Shown in pieces: positions 18,301 through 41,256 of a stretch of DNA of 41,256 nucleotides. The stretch spans positions 1-41,256 of the forward strand of contig JBBQRQ010000042.1 in the NCBI GenBank assembly GCA_038214755.1, written 5' to 3'. The stretch comes from Verrucomicrobiota bacterium. Lineage in GTDB: Bacteria; Verrucomicrobiota; Verrucomicrobiia; Limisphaerales; CANJXF01. Positions within the stretch are counted from its first letter, which is position 1. Each line of letters opens with the position of its first letter. Position numbers: made by a program.

Positions 18301-21300
18301 AAGAATTTCCCGATCTGCCGTTCAACCTCCGAGACCAATAAGTTCCATTTCTTTGCGCCTTTCTATCTTCGCGTCTTTGCGTTAAAAAAAACTATGGAAT
18401 CCGAACGCAAAACTCTCGACGACCGCAACAAGATGACCGACCTCGAACGCCTGCGCCATTCCTGTGCGCACGTGCTCGCGACGGCGATTCTGAAACTCTG
18501 GCCCGACGCGCAATTCGCCGCCGGGCCGCCCGTTGAAAATGGTTTTTATTACGACGTGGAATTGTCGCACCGCATTTCGCCGGAAGATTTCGCGAAGATC
18601 GAAGCGGAGATGAAGGCGATCACAAAAGCCAATCAGCCTTTTGAAAAAGTTGTCGTCACGCGCGAACAGGCCTTGGCGGATGCGAAATCGGGAAAACTTG
18701 CCGCGCTCGGCGAACGCAGCACTCCGAGCAAATTCAAGTTGGACATTGTTGAGAATATTCCGGCGAACGAACCGATTTCTTATTTCAAGAATGGCGATTT
18801 CATCGATCTCTGCGCCGGGCCGCACGTCATGCGCACGGGCAACATCGGCGCGTTCAAGCTCACGCATGTCGCCAGTGCCTACTACAAAGGCGACGACAAA
18901 AATCCGCAGCTGCAACGCATTTACGGCACCGCGTTCAAAAACAAAACCGAGATGGACGCTTACTTCACGATGTTGGAAGAGGCGAAGAAACGCGACCACC
19001 GGAAAATCGGCACGGAGATGGGCTTGTTCGCCATCGACACGGAATTTGTCGGGCCCGGTCTGCCGCTCTGGTTGCCGAAAGGCACGGCAATTTTGGAGGA
19101 ACTGGAAAAGCTCGCGAAGGAAACGGAATTTCAGGCGGGTTATGTGCGCGTGAAGACGCCGCACATTGCGCGGGAGAAAATGTATAAAACGAGCGGCCAC
19201 CTGCCGTATTACGCCGAGTCGATGTTTCCAGCGATGCAGATGAAATTTGATCCTGAGGAAGAACGGCAGATAGTGAAGCTCGAAGCAATAATCGAGGAAA
19301 AATCCAAAGCGATACAGGCCTTTGAACGTATTTTCTCTACCATGAAAATGGAGGAGGCGGCCAAAGATCATCGCGATAAGCTAGATCAGTTTGAGCAGTA
19401 TAAGCGTGACTTGGCCGAGATCAGCGACAAGCGAGATGAAACCCTTAGTCACAATCGCTATTACCTCAAAGCCATGAACTGTCCGCATCACCACCGCATT
19501 TTTGCGGCGGAACCGCACAGTTATCGCGACCTGCCGTTGCGCCTGGCCGAATACGGCACCTGCTATCGCTACGAACAGTCGGGCGAGTTGTTCGGCCTCA
19601 TGCGCGTGCGCTCGCTCAACATGAACGACGCCCACATTTATTGCACCGAAGACCAGTTCGCGGAGGAGTTTCGCGCCGTCAACGACATGTATCTGAAATA
19701 TTTTAAAATCTTCGGATTGGAAAAATATCAGATGCGTTTCAGCACCTCCTCGCCCGAAGGTCTGGGCAAGAAATACGTCAACGAACCGGAGCTGTGGAAA
19801 AAAACCGAGGACATGGTGCGCAAAGTGTTGATCGATTCCGGCATCAACTTTGTGGAAGTCGCCAACGAAGCCGCGTTTTACGGCCCGAAAATCGACGTGC
19901 AGGTCTGGAGCGCCATCGGCCGCGAATTCACAATTGCGACCAACCAGGTGGATTTCGCCGTGCCCGCGAAGTTCGGCCTGAAATATCGCGACAAGGATAA
20001 TTCCGAGAAAACGCCGTTGTGCATTCATCGCGCGCCGCTCGGCACACACGAACGTTTCATCGGATTCCTGATCGAACATTACGCCGGCAATTTCCCGCTC
20101 TGGCTCGCGCCGGAACAGGTGCGCGTCCTGACGCTCAACGCCGACGACAATCTCGTGGCCTACGCCAAAGACATCGCCCAACAACTCCGCGCCGCCGAAG
20201 TCCGCGTGACCAGCGACCTTGGCCCCGAACCGATCAAAGCGAAAATCGCCGAAGCCGAACAAGCCAAAGTCCACACCATGCTCGTCATCGGTGGCCGCGA
20301 CGTGGAATCGGGTAACGTGAGCGTGCGTTTGCATGGGAAAGGGAATGTGGGGGCGAAGGCGAAGGGGGAAGTGGTGGCGGAGATTCTAGCATCGATTCGA
20401 AAACGACAGGATTAATTCACAACTGGATTGAAAAATCGAAAGCATGAAAAGAGAAACTTCCTTTACGCGAACACTCTTTCCCGCGCACGTAATACGCGAA
20501 GCATTCGAGACCCTTTTTCCGAAGGAGAGTGTTGAGAAAGGTATTCGGCATTTACTATCTCTTCAGGTAGGCAAAGACAAGTGGACGTACGATTCGTTCG
20601 AGCAGTTCTTAGCGGATTATCCAAGGCATACAGGTTACGTTTATGGCGATCTCCACGACGATAAGCACCAGTTGATCATCAGTGTCAGAACCCACGATAC
20701 CGGCATCCAAGTGAAAGCTTCGACGCATGGCCCTATTAACGCCACATTCTCAGTGTTCGAGCGCGCAGCCGATGCATGCAGACTACCTCCACCTCCTGAG
20801 CCACCCAAACCTGTAAAGCCCCCTCCCGTCGTTTTTGTCGGCCACGGGCGCAGTGCGCTTTGGCGCGCCCTCAAAGACCATCTCGCCGAAAAGCACGGTT
20901 ATCGCGTCGAAGCGTACGAAGTCGGCGCACGGGCTGGACATACGATCAGGGACATTCTGGCGGACATGCTTGGAAAATCTTCTTTCGCCTGTTTGGTTCT
21001 GACAGCAGAGGATGAAATGGCCGATGGAACGATGAGGTCTCGCCAAAATGTCATTCACGAAACGGGATTGTTCCAGGGACGTTTGGGTTTCAGTCGGGCG
21101 ATTGTGCTGCTTGAAGAGGGTGCAGAGGAGTTTTCCAACATCGAAGGCATACAGCAAATCCGATTCTCCAAGGGAAACATCAAGGAAACATTTGGCGAAG
21201 TACTCGCAACTCTAAGGCGTGAGTTTGGCCCAACATCTGGCGATGCTAAAGGCTAACGGAATTTTCCGTTGCGCCTGGCCGAATACGGCACCTGCTATCG

Positions 21301-39300: not shown

Positions 39301-41256
39301 ACTGTGCGGTTCCGCCTCACACGCAGGACGCCGCCAAGGCGATTGAGTTTTACAAAAAAGCTTTTGGCGCACAGGAAAACGCGCGGCACATGACGCCCGA
39401 TGGCAAGTCCGTCATGCACGCGCAACTGAAAATCGGCAACTCCATGCTGATGATTGGAAACGAATTTCCGCCAACGTGTCCCTCGCCCAAATCGCGCGGT
39501 GGCACAAGCGTGGTGATGCACTTTTACGTCGAGGACGCCGATGCCGCATTTGATCGCGCCGTGAAGGCAGGTTGCACGGCGAAGATGCCGATGAGCGATC
39601 AATTTTGGGGTGACCGTTACGGCCAGGTGGAAGATCCGTTCGGCCATCAGTGGTCCATTGCCACGCGCAAATAGGATTTCACGGAGGAACAAATTTCTGC
39701 GAACGCCAAAACCTTCTTTGCTAACATGCCGAAGATGTAATGAGACTCCACTGCTTTCTCAATTCGATTACTCTGCGTGCCATGCATGGAGTCGGAAAAA
39801 CCTCGGCGATGGCTGGCTCTTCACATTGGGAATTGTGTAATTCTTGATACTGCCGCTGCCGGTTGGTCCGCCATTCAAGCTCGTCCAGGCCACCGGTGGT
39901 GTCAGATTGGTGGCCTGCTGTATAAGAACGTTTTGATTTCCGCCCCAATATATATACAAGTCAGTGCTGTTGGTGATAGCGACGTTCATGGTCAGCGCAA
40001 CGGGAGTTACATTCGGCCAATCGCCTTCCACTCGGATTTGGTCGAGGGTTATGCCACCTGGCCCTTCCGTCGCTGAGGTTTGGTGAATTACCACTTGGCC
40101 GACACCAGTCAGCAGATCAGTGCCAGCCGTAGCCGTAAGAGTGGGAGCGGGACGATTGGCGTCGGCTACTCCGTAATTGGTAGGATTGGGATTGATCCAT
40201 AATAAAGTCGAAGTATCTCCTTGGTCGGGAGTGGCGTATTTGCAGACCACAAAATTAGTCCGGCCCACCAAATAAGCGTTCCCATCCCAAACCGGCGCTC
40301 CGCCCAGGCCGGAAGTTTTTGCCACGCCGATATTGTAGCTGTTCGCGGCGCCCAGAACGTCCTTGCGAAGAAATAATAATCCGCCGTAAGCGTTCGTCTG
40401 AATCGATTGAGAAAAAGCGGCAATGAAACCCCCGTTCGTCGTCATGGAACCCAAGGCTGTGACTTTGAAAGCAAGCGAATAAAAATAAATGCCCGGTTGC
40501 TCTCCGCCCAACAAGTTCGTCAGAGCATGGCGAACCTCCATTGGTCCGCCGCCAAAGGCAAGGCTGTTGCCTTCGCCCGCCGGCATCAAACCTGGTGTGA
40601 CCAATGTGCCCGCTTGGATAACGGGGTTGGTGCCGGAAGAGAGCACCCATCCTCCTTGCCCACCCAGAGCGGAAGCCGGTGGATAAGCAAACGATTCGTA
40701 AAACTGGAGTGCTCGGGCTTGGGTTCCAAAAAAACAAAGGGTGAGGATGATAAGAATATTTTTCATATATTTTTCAGGGTGGACAGGACGATCTTTCCCG
40801 CGCCGCAAAAGTTTGTCAAGTTAGGAACTTAGAAAAATCCCATGAGCTTTTTTCTTACTGCTAATGGAAGGAAGAAAACAACGAACAGCGAATATCAAAG
40901 GGCGAACTTTCCCGCTTTTGTCATCCCGGAATAGCCCAAACGCGCAATTCGATTGTTCGATGTTGGATATTGGATATTGGATATTGGATATTGGATGTTG
41001 GATGTTGGATGTTGGATGTTGGATGTTGGTGATCGGCGGATGATCCGTCCCTCGTTGCGCATCGACGAGCGGCTGACGTCCCAAGTTCCGACGAGGCTTC
41101 CAGCCTCCGGGTCTACTTCGTTTACCAACATCTAACATCCAACATCTAACATCTACCCCGCCTTCCGCCCCGCCTCACCCCATAAGCCGCCCTAGCGCCT
41201 CCCAGGTGGCGGCGTCGAGCGGGATCCAGTCGTTGAAGGCGAGGCCTTCGACATCG

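Follow-up and report, generated by a model that had tools for sequence, protein, structure and literature searches.

How small cassettes that carry no recombinase reach the hot spots of defence and toxin-antitoxin genes is largely an open question. The window, a stretch of 41,256 nucleotides from a Verrucomicrobiota bacterium (contig C42 of genome G000), raises it at thrS, the gene for threonyl-tRNA synthetase (ThrRS): behind the intact gene lie displaced copies of its 3' part, with small accessory genes between them. Sequence evidence presented here indicates that the insert came with its own version of the end of the essential gene next to it. An insert of this kind points to plain homologous recombination as the way of entry, and would explain why insert and duplicate come as a pair.

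Displaced thrS copies and their cargo

We searched the window with thrS by blastn and compared the window with itself. All E-values lay between 1e-41 and 0, which rules out chance for the thrS fragment matches. Throughout, thrS nt 19xxx-20xxx denotes window positions inside the intact gene, and the displaced copies are called D1 (21266-23536, from piece A to F1), F2, F3 and Finv. All genomes used were MAGs, that of the window in 175 contigs. The features of the locus were:

18394..20415, plus strand: intact thrS, 673 aa; Pfam tRNA_SAD, tRNA-synt_2b (aa 353-563), HGTP_anticodon (aa 575-664)
20444..21256, plus strand: cargo 1, TIR effector-type gene (CAP12/PycTIR); PF10137, 81.7 bits; PADLOC PycTIR/PDC-S35-like
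21266..21359, plus strand: start of D1, inner thrS piece (piece A); thrS nt 19534-19627, 98%
21360..22060, plus strand: VapBC-like cassette; Phd/YefM-like antitoxin 21375-21635, PIN toxin 21632-22060
22093..22418, plus strand: relic 5' end of a split-type thrS C-terminal half-gene, by translation; decayed thrS 19459-19621 after the head
22419..23088, plus strand: RelE(HI1419)/HigA(HI1420) cassette; TIGR02683, 127.9 bits; PF21716, 48.1 bits
23089..23536, plus strand: F1, end of D1; thrS nt 19969 to stop; tail EILGAIKERKS
23533..26247, plus strand: cargo 2, four genes; transglutaminase-core2-like protein of 416 aa, ORF of 198 aa, ORFs of 128 and 121 aa with no assigned function
26254..26614, plus strand: F2; thrS nt 19792 to about 20128; REP-type insert at about 26548-26572 with an in-frame stop
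26714..28285, plus strand: BamB-like PQQ beta-propeller gene; PF13360
28302..28630, plus strand: F3; thrS nt 20082 to stop; tail NILKTIKERTA
28642..28960, minus strand: displaced dprA 3' fragment; 88% to the intact dprA on G000 contig C5, dN/dS 0.074
37521..38354, minus strand: small cassette behind Finv; DUF6036 nucleotidyltransferase 37902-38354, 107-aa ORF 37574-37897, thrS scrap
38386..39319, minus strand: Finv, inverted thrS copy; nt 19503 to stop; tail EILAAIKQRRA, near the phylum consensus

The downstream 3' fragments described in the first-pass annotation were recovered at 23089-23536, 26254-26614, 28302-28630 and, inverted, 39319-38386, and translation reproduced exactly the three fragment tails it had given, each ending at a stop codon, against EILASIRKRQD in the intact gene. 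The intact tail is atypical, as most of 80 relatives end in ILA(A/S)I(K/R)ERRA. By blastn, Finv (39319-38405, minus strand) matched thrS nt 19503-20396 at 89.8% over 915 nt, F1 (23089-23527) matched 19969-20406 at 89.1%, F3 (28302-28587) matched 20082-20372 at 86.9%, and F2 (26254-26510) matched 19792-20048 at 95.7%; against Finv, the F2 match extends as far as 26614 (362 nt, 87.8%). Inner pieces were found at 21266-21359 (97.9% to 19534-19627) and 22223-22418 (77% to 19459-19621), and weak pieces at 26581-26622 and 37580-37521 on the minus strand.

The fragments are thus real, but the count of four independent displaced ends did not hold: 21266-23536 is one copy, and F2 and Finv are kin. D1 corresponds to thrS from 19534 to the stop; nested in it are two toxin-antitoxin cassettes, and it also contains the 5' head of a thrS half-gene of the split type. 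It is a dead half-gene of a split thrS. The relic at 22093..22418 has its own start and a head (MKTDLNLIEEAVKTGTAP..AFNELSSL..), similar heads precede working C-halves in G001 and G007, and the last 67 nt of the relic (22352-22418) are 97% identical to piece A. The RelE/HigA cassette takes the place of thrS nt 19622-19968 in D1, with identical junctions in G003:C380 and G007:C221. Among the window copies only F1 still has an open frame, and its stop overlaps the ATG of the downstream gene (ATGA). In Finv, 39 nt replace 18 nt (FLIEHY), and the replacement holds a REP core (38721-38745) and a stop; F2 shares this insertion, which makes the two kin. F3 begins at the boundary of the catalytic and anticodon-binding domains, carries a TGA and a 5-nt deletion, and stands tail to tail with the dprA fragment. 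It had been suggested that F2 and F3 are one copy split by an insert, which is too simple a view: the two share about 47 nt, in which 6 positions mismatch, and what separates them is the chromosomal BamB-like gene. That gene was considered as cargo and rejected: its orthologues in G003 (C133, 72% aa, beside thrS pieces) and G001 (C42, 66% aa, on a contig that also has thrS) lie near thrS, so it is ordinary chromosome.

The gene content noted earlier (TIR protein of CAP12/PycTIR type, Phd-like antitoxin with PIN toxin, RelE/HigA pair) was confirmed. The TIR gene starts 29 nt past the thrS stop, and none of the 20 relatives searched gave a match to it. No orthologue of the transglutaminase-like gene was found among 8 congeners, which speaks against the earlier view of this gene (g02593) as possibly ordinary chromosome, and both genes are therefore taken as accessory cargo. 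As a lead only, atlas look-alikes of the transglutaminase-core2-like protein scored 0.96-0.98, with PF13369 on 55-59% of members. The 198-aa ORF (24797-25393) matches the end of an Rhs-associated core (TIGR03696, 33 bits) and is a candidate orphan toxin tip. The VapBC-like cassette has a promoter-like TTGCTT..TATTTT, a PIN match above the Pfam cut-off (25.5 bits) and a PhdYeFM match below it (22.4 bits); its left end joins thrS nt 19627 in the window, and in G006, whose contig C85 is 86.6% identical to the region over 1085 nt, it joins about nt 20089. The cassette behind Finv closes with a 60-nt thrS scrap (37580-37521, 75%). Cargo units measure just 0.7-4.5 kb, and many hold a single gene.

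Variant 3' ends at thrS and at other genes

We compared each stub with the intact gene codon by codon. The dN/dS values were 0.108 for F1, 0.187 for F2, 0.144 for F3 and 0.111 for Finv, and orthologues within the family gave 0.012-0.26. Differences at codon positions 1/2/3 numbered 10/4/33 in F1, 3/2/6 in F2, 8/2/22 in F3 and 14/8/50 in Finv; our own chi-square test against equal positions gave a third-position bias of P < 1e-4 for F1, F3 and Finv, the differences in F2 being too few to test. Nor are the copies of this genome one another's nearest kin: in nt 20090-20372 all are 88-90% alike, the intact thrS is 92.6% identical to a fragment of G007, and over 20090-20250 Finv is 96.3% identical to a fragment of G002. 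These results show that the stubs are foreign variants (alleles) and not decayed local duplicates, and they support the view that the fragments once formed the ends of working thrS genes. In G000 either copy may be the native one and the other the import.

Intact genes, too, have mosaic 3' ends. The thrS of G005 is 97-98% identical to that of G000 until about nt 20060 and 66-71% past 20090, and the thrS of G001 shows the opposite pattern, 84-89% first and then 95%. The switch point is motif 3 at the domain boundary (aa 563/575), where the start of F3 and the REP also lie. The final 330 nt of thrS in this group are a patchwork of foreign pieces, which calls for caution by annotators and phylogeneticists.

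The layout recurs in relatives. Matches to the thrS end (2-5 each) had been noted in 5 of 9 family genomes; the count is now slightly higher, 6 of 9 including the unpublished G009, and of 80 public Verrucomicrobiota thrS loci 7 have extra thrS pieces. The clean case is G013, where thrS is followed by TfoX_N and HxlR genes, a fragment (84.5% to its own gene) and a PaaX-like gene; the last two are collinear with the thrS end and PaaX-like gene of G034. Cargo elsewhere matches the type published for insertion with long target duplication and includes an N6_N4 methylase with a BstXI-type nuclease between thrS and stub in the public MAG L117, AAA_15/21 ATPases (L144, G012) and a TOTE primase system (G013). 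In G000 itself, the order of intact gene, cargo and variant 3' stub is found at six other genes (ilvD, a Mo-oxidoreductase, an SSF symporter, a transketolase-like gene, a sulfatase and a 454-aa gene), with downstream stubs that reach the gene end to within 0 to 4 nt, 89-97% identity and dN/dS of 0.04-0.21. As for the single-copy state in relatives, G001 has one copy of the C-part and the other G000 genes have one copy each, save one G005 fragment; at the transketolase and Mo-oxidoreductase loci, none of the relatives searched showed a clean empty site. On this sequence comparison, the pattern is shown to recur in the order and the phylum. A similar look was seen at thiC, where the contig stops.

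Possible routes of DNA entry

Mosaic 3' ends, accessory cargo and variable boundaries were observed, with no recombinase genes in the annotated arrays. On balance we lean towards homologous recombination on the conserved gene end, as a variant of 'insertion with long target duplication'. Incoming DNA from a related lineage, carrying that lineage's own thrS 3' part joined to accessory genes, would find a homology anchor in the conserved thrS end. The resident thrS would recombine with this piece by ordinary homologous recombination: the piece might circularise and enter by one crossover (Campbell type), integrate across two sister chromosomes, or enter by a double crossover with the donor's two thrS repeats as arms. 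The product would be a chimeric yet intact thrS, the cargo and a second, variant 3' end. Because thrS is essential, only events that spare a whole gene would survive, so that a duplicate would always accompany the insert. Repeats of the process would stack cargo and stubs, and the stubs may later decay (stops, frameshift, REP insertion) and take up toxin-antitoxin cassettes, one of them becoming inverted.

We infer the RecA-type recombination that would form the joint, the topology of the intermediate and the route of DNA entry. The genome has both ComEC and DprA, which lends the proposal little weight, because 10 of 14 reference genomes also gave ComEC in a control search. Natural transformation is not known from this group, which counts against the proposal. 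A simple Campbell insertion does not account for the inverted copy, and stubs that fall short of the stop (F2, piece A) need further deletions. Boundaries also cluster: the joints of two different cassettes with thrS, at 19621 and 19627, are no more than 6 nt apart, and the starts of several fragments fall around 20050-20090. Such clustering could also be the work of a targeted nuclease or recombinase acting in trans.

It is unlikely that classical integrase islands were stacked at an attB in thrS, each with a replacement 3' end, their integrases being lost or acting from elsewhere. The whole gene, cargo and displaced 3' end are their standard signature, the target gene is regenerated with its old end displaced, the cargo is rich in defence and toxin-antitoxin genes, and boundaries cluster near nt 19621-19627 and 20050-20090. 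Genome-wide we found 5 tyrosine-recombinase matches and 1 serine-recombinase match, none of them on C42. Against this, no PF00589 or PF00239 domain occurred in the ORFs of the window or in any of the >20 annotated arrays (the window, G005, G012, G013, L083, L091, L117, L128, L143, L144 and 16 G000 loci). Reading the junctions by eye, with no formal motif search behind it, revealed no shared motif or att core. The stubs begin at thrS nt 19503, 19534, 19792, 19969 and 20082 here (aa 370, 467, 526, 563) and between aa 350 and 640 elsewhere, units of 0.7-4.5 kb often hold one gene, and at least 7 target genes in one genome would demand many specificities. The earlier reading of the thrS end as a serial insertion site therefore stands as to repeated use and falls as to a thrS-specific integrase site, since the same footprint lies at six other genes of this genome.

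Less likely still, HUH enzymes (Y1, RAYT-like) and REP sequences would have caused the breaks, thrS being rearranged as REP/RAYT elements landed. In Finv and F2 the 20064-20081 hot spot is exactly where a REP of about 25 nt (TCCGCCTCCTCACGTCGGCGGCTAC) is found, a short-blast search returned 168 rows (thrS self-matches included) with frequent inverted pairs, and the genome has 17 Y1_Tnp matches. In G005 and L143 the gene next after thrS is a Y1_Tnp gene with a short stub behind it, and the thrS loop of G033, G031 and L094 contains an in-frame Y1_Tnp domain. However, REP is missing at most junctions and may have landed in an already dead copy, and we know of no IS200/IS605-type enzyme that duplicates hundreds of bases or carries cargo.

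That the thrS end arose in several copies by local segmental duplication and then diverged neutrally, a reading which the first-pass annotation had left open, is very improbable. The repeats are direct and close-set, and F2 and Finv, with their common REP, are copies of each other; the third-position bias and dN/dS near 0.1 are unlike neutral decay and led us to reject it, the copies are no nearer one another than to sequences of other genomes, and the tails differ as alleles do.

An assembly artefact, in which the MAG wrongly chains strain variants of thrS, appears just as improbable, even though the MAG has 175 contigs and contigs of relatives often break in the thrS end. Logan contigs, built by a second assembler from a single public run that probably represents the source sample, span 18000-37900 with an even word depth of about 20-28 and bridge every unique/repeat junction: from thrS through the TIR gene to piece A (20352-21295), from piece A through VapBC to the head (21330-22262), from F1 through cassette 2 to F2 (23428-26283), and from F2 through the BamB-like gene to F3 (26427-28405). 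Identical RelE/HigA-in-thrS junctions occur in two further MAGs, and a thrS array lies on a 698-kb contig (L083). The long-range order of the locus rests on a single assembly. No deletion joint was present among the Logan contigs at the locus, which can hide rare forms, and no intermediate, empty site or excised form was seen in this species.

Finally, stubs retained as free-standing ThrRS anticodon-binding domains, for example as decoys against tRNA-targeting toxins, are scarcely credible: F1 (145 aa) and the G012 (323 aa), L144 and L083 fragments have open frames with a whole HGTP_anticodon and stubs adjoin PIN and RelE toxins, but F2, F3, Finv and the G013 fragment are broken, with no sign of a start signal or of selection after displacement.

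Known systems and wider occurrence

Insertion with long target duplication was reportedly described by Nobusato et al. in 2000 (Gene 259:99). Furuta, Abe & Kobayashi 2010 (NAR, PMC2853133) describe small accessory units between long direct target repeats, with no transposase or integrase; the repeats, of 46 to about 420 bp and 90-100% alike, are interpreted there as target duplication and often span the stop codon so that the target gene stays whole, and the cases come mostly from naturally competent species, the mechanism being left open. The thrS loci likewise have accessory cargo between target repeats (the methylase and BstXI-type nuclease of L117 included) and no mobility gene, except for Y1_Tnp as sole cargo in G005 and L143; direct repeats >30 bp flank the cargo and are single-copy in the empty site of a relative (G013 against G034). 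Here, by contrast, the repeats span 250-930 bp and are 84-97% alike with a purifying-selection pattern (dN/dS 0.04-0.21), so that the repeats are variants of different lineages, one copy being imported. TIR, toxin-antitoxin and other non-RM genes make up most of the cargo, and events are stacked at one essential gene that is reused across an order.

Islander-type tandem islands, built by tyrosine integrases at tRNA, tmRNA and protein-gene 3' ends, leave a regenerated target and a ladder of displaced 3' fragments. Here too the target is regenerated and displaced 3' fragments separate the inserts, whereas there is no integrase, no fixed crossover core, many fragment lengths and 1-4 genes per insert. 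Complex class 1 integrons have ISCR1 between partial duplications of the 3' conserved segment; cargo likewise lies next to a conserved segment and rescue by homologous recombination leaves a partial duplicate, but the annotated thrS arrays hold no ISCR (IS91-type) gene and the anchor is a housekeeping gene. Of the integron hallmarks IntI, attI and attC, there is no integrase, and the cassettes are bounded by thrS pieces with no shared folded site. Orphan C-terminal arrays behind rhs/cdiA are displaced 3' ends with their own tails and interleaved small genes, the tails being different toxins with immunity genes whose swap alters function. The thrS loci share the order of main gene and displaced ends with own tails; they differ in that the main gene encodes ThrRS and the tails are homologous synthetase ends with no apparent use. 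In S. pneumoniae, as described by Johnston et al. 2013 (PMC3784515), transformation yields merodiploids when the donor integrates across two chromatids via out-of-register repeats and so creates a duplication, and an essential target gene selects cells that hold both an intact and a disrupted copy. The duplications in that species measure 100-900 kb, are bounded by IS copies and lack stability, whereas those at thrS are sub-kilobase and fixed, with foreign cargo.

The intact thrS has a lineage-specific insertion of 72 aa (aa 285-356) where S. aureus ThrRS (1nyq) has about 5 residues in the alignment. Going beyond recombination at this locus, we put forward, as a tentative extension that we would not expect to hold in full, that essential-gene ends of Verrucomicrobiota might act as universal homology anchors on which small defence, toxin-antitoxin and restriction cassettes move between species with no recombinase. 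The permissive 72-aa surface loop of thrS might be a second anchor, the stubs might form a readable record of transfer, and the same process might have split thrS, in several lineages, into two halves (conserved N-half tail, C-half head) with cassettes between them. In several genomes the sole ThrRS comes from two half-genes separated by 1.3-5.2 kb that contain toxin-antitoxin genes, an arrangement unusual for an essential aminoacyl-tRNA synthetase. The extra thrS fragments also break assemblies.

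Displaced thrS ends in the window

Contig C42 is one of the 175 contigs of this 5.1-Mb MAG (G000). We compared thrS with the window by blastn and the window with itself. All thrS fragments listed by the first-pass annotation were recovered, and translation reproduced exactly the tails it had quoted for them. The copies are given below, with thrS nt positions counted as window coordinates of the intact gene (18394-20415, +, 673 aa).

thrS pieces and an adjoining gene fragment in the window
21266-21359, +: inner thrS piece, 98%
22223-22418, +: inner thrS piece, 77%
23089-23536, +: F1, thrS nt 19969 to stop, 89.1% (blastn)
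26254-26510, +: F2, 95.7% to thrS; reaches 26614 by comparison with the inverted copy
28302-28630, +: F3, thrS nt 20082 to stop, 86.9%
28642-28960, -: displaced dprA 3' fragment, tail to tail with F3
39319-38386, -: Finv, the inverted copy, thrS nt 19503 to stop, 89.8%

Among F1, F2, F3 and Finv, only F1 kept an open frame. F3 was broken by a TGA and a 5-nt deletion, and in both F2 and Finv the FLIEHY codons were swapped for a common 39 nt with a stop. The earlier proposal that F2 and F3 may be one split copy did not hold in its simple form, as they overlap by ~47 nt with 6 mismatches. The 39-nt replacement contains a dispersed repeat of ~25 nt (REP, TCCGCCTCCTCACGTCGGCGGCTAC; window 38721-38745(-), about 26548-26572, and also 1532-1555), and because F2 and Finv share this REP-bearing replacement, they are copies of one another. 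Folded as DNA, the replacement was unremarkable (z = -1.4). A short-blast search with the REP returned 168 rows, which include thrS self-matches and hence are not a copy count; the copies are often paired inverted, about 20 nt apart, and were found in relatives too.

The dprA fragment is 88% identical to the intact copy on contig C5, with a dN/dS of 0.074. The ~320 nt conserved behind F3 had been considered as an RNA gene, which was rejected since this stretch is the dprA fragment. An Rfam scan of the window returned nothing beyond tRNA-Met.

Differences from intact thrS at codon positions 1/2/3 numbered 10/4/33 in F1, 8/2/22 in F3 and 14/8/50 in Finv, and dN/dS was 0.108, 0.144 and 0.111, respectively, and 0.187 in F2; intact thrS of other family genomes gave 0.012-0.26 against G000. 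A drifting pseudogene should approach equality among codon positions, so this third-position excess indicates that the fragments diverged inside working thrS genes. Their substitution pattern marks the fragments as variants that came from other lineages rather than as duplicates in decay. Over nt 20090-20372 the G000 copies were 88-90% alike mutually, the intact gene was 92.6% identical to a fragment in G007 (a relative, as are the other numbered G genomes), and Finv matched a G002 fragment at 96.3% over 20090-20250. The G000 fragments are thus not one another's closest kin. The tail of the intact gene (..SIRKRQD) is atypical; most of 80 public relatives end in ..ILA(A/S)I(K/R)ERRA, to which Finv comes nearest among the G000 tails.

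Intact genes were mosaic as well. G005 thrS was 97-98% identical to that of G000 up to about nt 20060 and 66-71% past 20090, and G001 thrS was 84-89% identical ahead of this switch (~nt 20060-20090) and 95% just past it. The switch coincides with class II motif 3, at the border where the catalytic domain meets the anticodon-binding one (Pfam aa 563/575). The same border is the start of F3 and of fragments in G005, G006 and G009 (G009 unpublished), and the site of the foreign 39 nt in F2 and Finv. These switches at motif 3 indicate that whole thrS 3' ends have been exchanged among these genomes, which is what the displacement model predicts. Another boundary common to many DNA matches, nt 19459, was rejected as a recombination site, since conservation merely resumes there after a variable loop.

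Split thrS genes, cassettes and arrays in relatives

The ORF at 22093-22416 begins with a head, MKTDLNLIEEAVKTGTAP..AFNELSSL.., followed by decayed thrS 19459-19621, and the same head precedes the thrS C-terminal halves of G001 and G007. The sole ThrRS-family matches in G001, G007 and G014 were two ORFs, covering TIGR00418 positions 1-256 and 256-561. On a single contig of G001, 5.2 kb separate the halves (L031 13213-14355(-) with L051 1432-2493(-); L numbers denote thrS loci), and in G007 the distance is 4.9 kb (L081 524-1534 with 6380-7216). Purifying selection acts on both halves (dN/dS for the N halves, 0.12 and 0.18; for the G001 C half, 0.062). The cut falls in a surface loop of about 5 residues in the solved S. 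aureus structure versus 72 (aa 285-356) in G000. Split genes were also found at L086, L098, L105, L112 and L128; the N half has a conserved tail, ..IAELEK.LSD.AKK*, and the C half a conserved head. Seven of the 80 public loci carried an N half at 1.3-5.2 kb from the C half, with L086 and L098 at 1.3 kb, and a further four had no N half within 2.6-9.9 kb upstream. The gaps carry HicA, DUF433, UPF0175 and DUF3368 toxin-antitoxin genes, a D12 methylase and a giant Kelch/NHL protein.

G006 has a VapBC cassette and the head, which match window 21336-22418 at 86.6%, directly 5' of its intact C half. The first-pass annotation had taken the fragments as displaced gene ends, which stands, and had separated the inner pieces from F1, which does not: 21266-23536 is best read as a single putative displaced copy of the split type, running from thrS 19534 to the stop. 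Inside it are the VapBC cassette, accompanied by the head, and a RelE/HigA cassette in place of nt 19622-19968. The RelE/HigA junction pair recurs in G003 and G007 and therefore predates G000. At its left end the VapBC cassette has promoter-like hexamers of its own; this end is joined to thrS nt 19627 in G000 and to about nt 20089 in G006, so this cassette joined thrS at two positions. In the unpublished G009 (C495, L041, 4309-5630), three extra C-half heads lie upstream of the working C half, two of them carrying its first 50 nt and one beside a VapB remnant, which suggests that the 5' end of the C half-gene is also a stacking site.

The cargo between the copies agreed with the earlier description: a CAP12/PycTIR-type TIR gene, a Phd-like antitoxin with a PIN toxin, and RelE(HI1419)/HigA(HI1420). 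The TIR gene was found in none of 20 relatives searched, and a 416-aa gene, which Atlas look-alikes liken to transglutaminase-core2 (a lead only), had just 36-41% matches in two of them; both genes are accessory on this ground. ORF 24797-25393 encodes an Rhs-associated core end. The BamB-like gene that separates F2 from F3 is ordinary chromosome, since orthologues of it lie near thrS in G001 (66% aa) and in G003 (72% aa, adjoining F2-like scraps). PADLOC and NCBIfam gave no match for the ORFs at 25411-25797, 25882-26247, 37211-37549, 37574-37897, 39768-40808 and 40821-41138, and promoter and terminator counts in 18000-29200 were not above those of shuffled sequence.

Searched with the final 1016 nt of thrS, 16 of the 40 other genomes in the order returned at least two matches, as did 6 of 9 in the family; some extra matches are short motif hits or one gene over two contigs. 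Three arrays are listed below.

thrS arrays in relatives, in gene order
G013: thrS, TfoX_N and HxlR, fragment (aa 455-672), PaaX-like gene, TOTE primase-helicase system, further scrap
G012: thrS, PfkB/HAD, open 323-aa fragment, AAA_15/21 with DUF3226, scrap
G005: thrS, Y1_Tnp (IS200/RAYT-like transposase domain) gene, four fragments; three each ahead of a large ORF, two of those with HYR domains

The G013 fragment and PaaX-like gene are collinear with the thrS end and PaaX-like gene of G034, and the fragment is 84.5% identical to G013's own gene. G013 is a clean insertion case, with the older end left beside its older neighbour. Extra downstream pieces were present at 7 of the 80 public Verrucomicrobiota loci (L083, L091, L112, L117, L128, L143, L144), a lower bound given the short flanks of many of them; the cargo comprised a DNA methylase and a BstXI-type nuclease (L117), an AAA_15/21 ATPase (L144) and a Y1_Tnp gene (L143). 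Ancestral synteny of thrS facing tricorn protease, as in G030, was dropped, tricorn occurring at 0 of 80 public thrS loci (tblastn). One DUF7309/DUF6930 gene recurs at L071 10824-12044, L083 10988-12046 and L128 6453-7505, with 84-86% aa identity: two genomes have it immediately after the thrS stop, and a third has it in the gap of its split thrS, right after the N half.

Gene ends elsewhere in the genome

A megablast of G000 against itself gave 53 local repeat pairs, of which we fetched 16 loci. Six of the 16 showed a whole gene, cargo, and then a stub (a displaced variant 3' end) ending 0 to 4 nt from the gene's end.

Stubs at other genes of G000 (identity; dN/dS)
ilvD: 88.9%, with a second, shorter stub; 0.105
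Mo-oxidoreductase: 91.2%; 0.04
SSF symporter: 95.3%; 0.049
Transketolase-like: 96.4%; 0.083
Sulfatase: 91.1%; 0.21
454-aa gene: 96.9%; 0.10

At thiC a like pattern surrounds a DNA methylase, but the contig ends there. For the transketolase-like and Mo-oxidoreductase loci, the family offered the genes without collinear flanks and no clean empty site, and neither an empty site nor an intermediate was seen for G000. As a rough family control, extra pieces accompanied the transketolase-like gene in none of seven relatives having the gene and the Mo-oxidoreductase gene in one of seven, compared with 6 of 9 for thrS, which marks thrS as a preferred place.

Routes of insertion

The nearest published phenomenon is insertion with long target duplication, known in print since 2000 and described for restriction-modification units. 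Such units have no mobility gene and are flanked by long direct repeats, which often span a stop codon; the mechanism was left open (PMC2853133). In contrast to that account, the repeats at thrS are different alleles, which fits homologous recombination with foreign DNA bearing its own gene end. New here are the allelic nature of the repeats, their stacking at one essential synthetase gene that has served repeatedly across the order, the use of housekeeping gene ends throughout the genome, and the connection with split thrS. In the literature searched, titles and abstract openings revealed no earlier description of thrS as a site of insertion or of its splitting in bacteria.

We lean towards homologous recombination with foreign DNA as the explanation of the insertions. 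Foreign DNA with its own thrS end would insert either through one crossover of a circular molecule or by integration across sister chromosomes. The latter has been shown experimentally for transformation-made merodiploids, where cells hit in an essential gene are selected for still having a whole copy of it (PMC3784515). Cargo between thrS repeats may then use them as arms for a double crossover into a naive thrS, and repeat divergence would slow cargo loss by recombination. ComEC and DprA are present in the genome and lend this reading weak support.

That integrases were lost or act in trans is unlikely. Tyrosine- or serine-recombinase domains were absent from the scanned ORFs of the window and 16 further G000 loci, and from the arrays of G005, G012, G013, G001, L083, L091, L117, L128, L143 and L144. 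Genome-wide there were five hits to PF00589 and one to PF00239, none on contig C42.

Help from REP/Y1 enzymes in making the breaks is more doubtful still. In its favour, an in-frame Y1-transposase-like domain occupies the ThrRS loop in G033, G031 and L094 (L048 176-2665(-) in G033, L052 in G031, L094 8564-10957; proteins of 797-829 aa, IS200/RAYT-like, with a PDHVHLLF motif).

Local duplication is very improbable, the third-position bias being unlike drift since duplication. All genomes compared are MAGs. An assembly artefact is just as improbable: contigs that a second assembler built from a single public run, probably of the source sample, tile 18000-37900 at even depth and span every junction of unique cargo with a thrS piece. 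They contained no deletion or excision joint, rare forms being beyond what contigs can reveal, and the one joint they do have, between opposite strands at 20385 and 37900, is due to the inverted copy Finv.

Several other repeats were observed. Of 17 Y1_Tnp hits in G000, three lie within ORFs of 970-1440 aa (C33, C64, C88). A non-coding repeat of ~205 nt (17267-17496), with ~50 genome copies at 72-97%, lies just 5' of tRNA-Met (17559-17635). The stretches 9276-10638 and 15639-17034, 1.4 kb each and 5.5 kb apart, are 78.6% identical and are probably paralogous genes. Heptamer tandem repeats (TGTTGGA, 10.9 copies) occur at 40954-41029 and 41125-41155, with similar ones on at least 10 other contigs.
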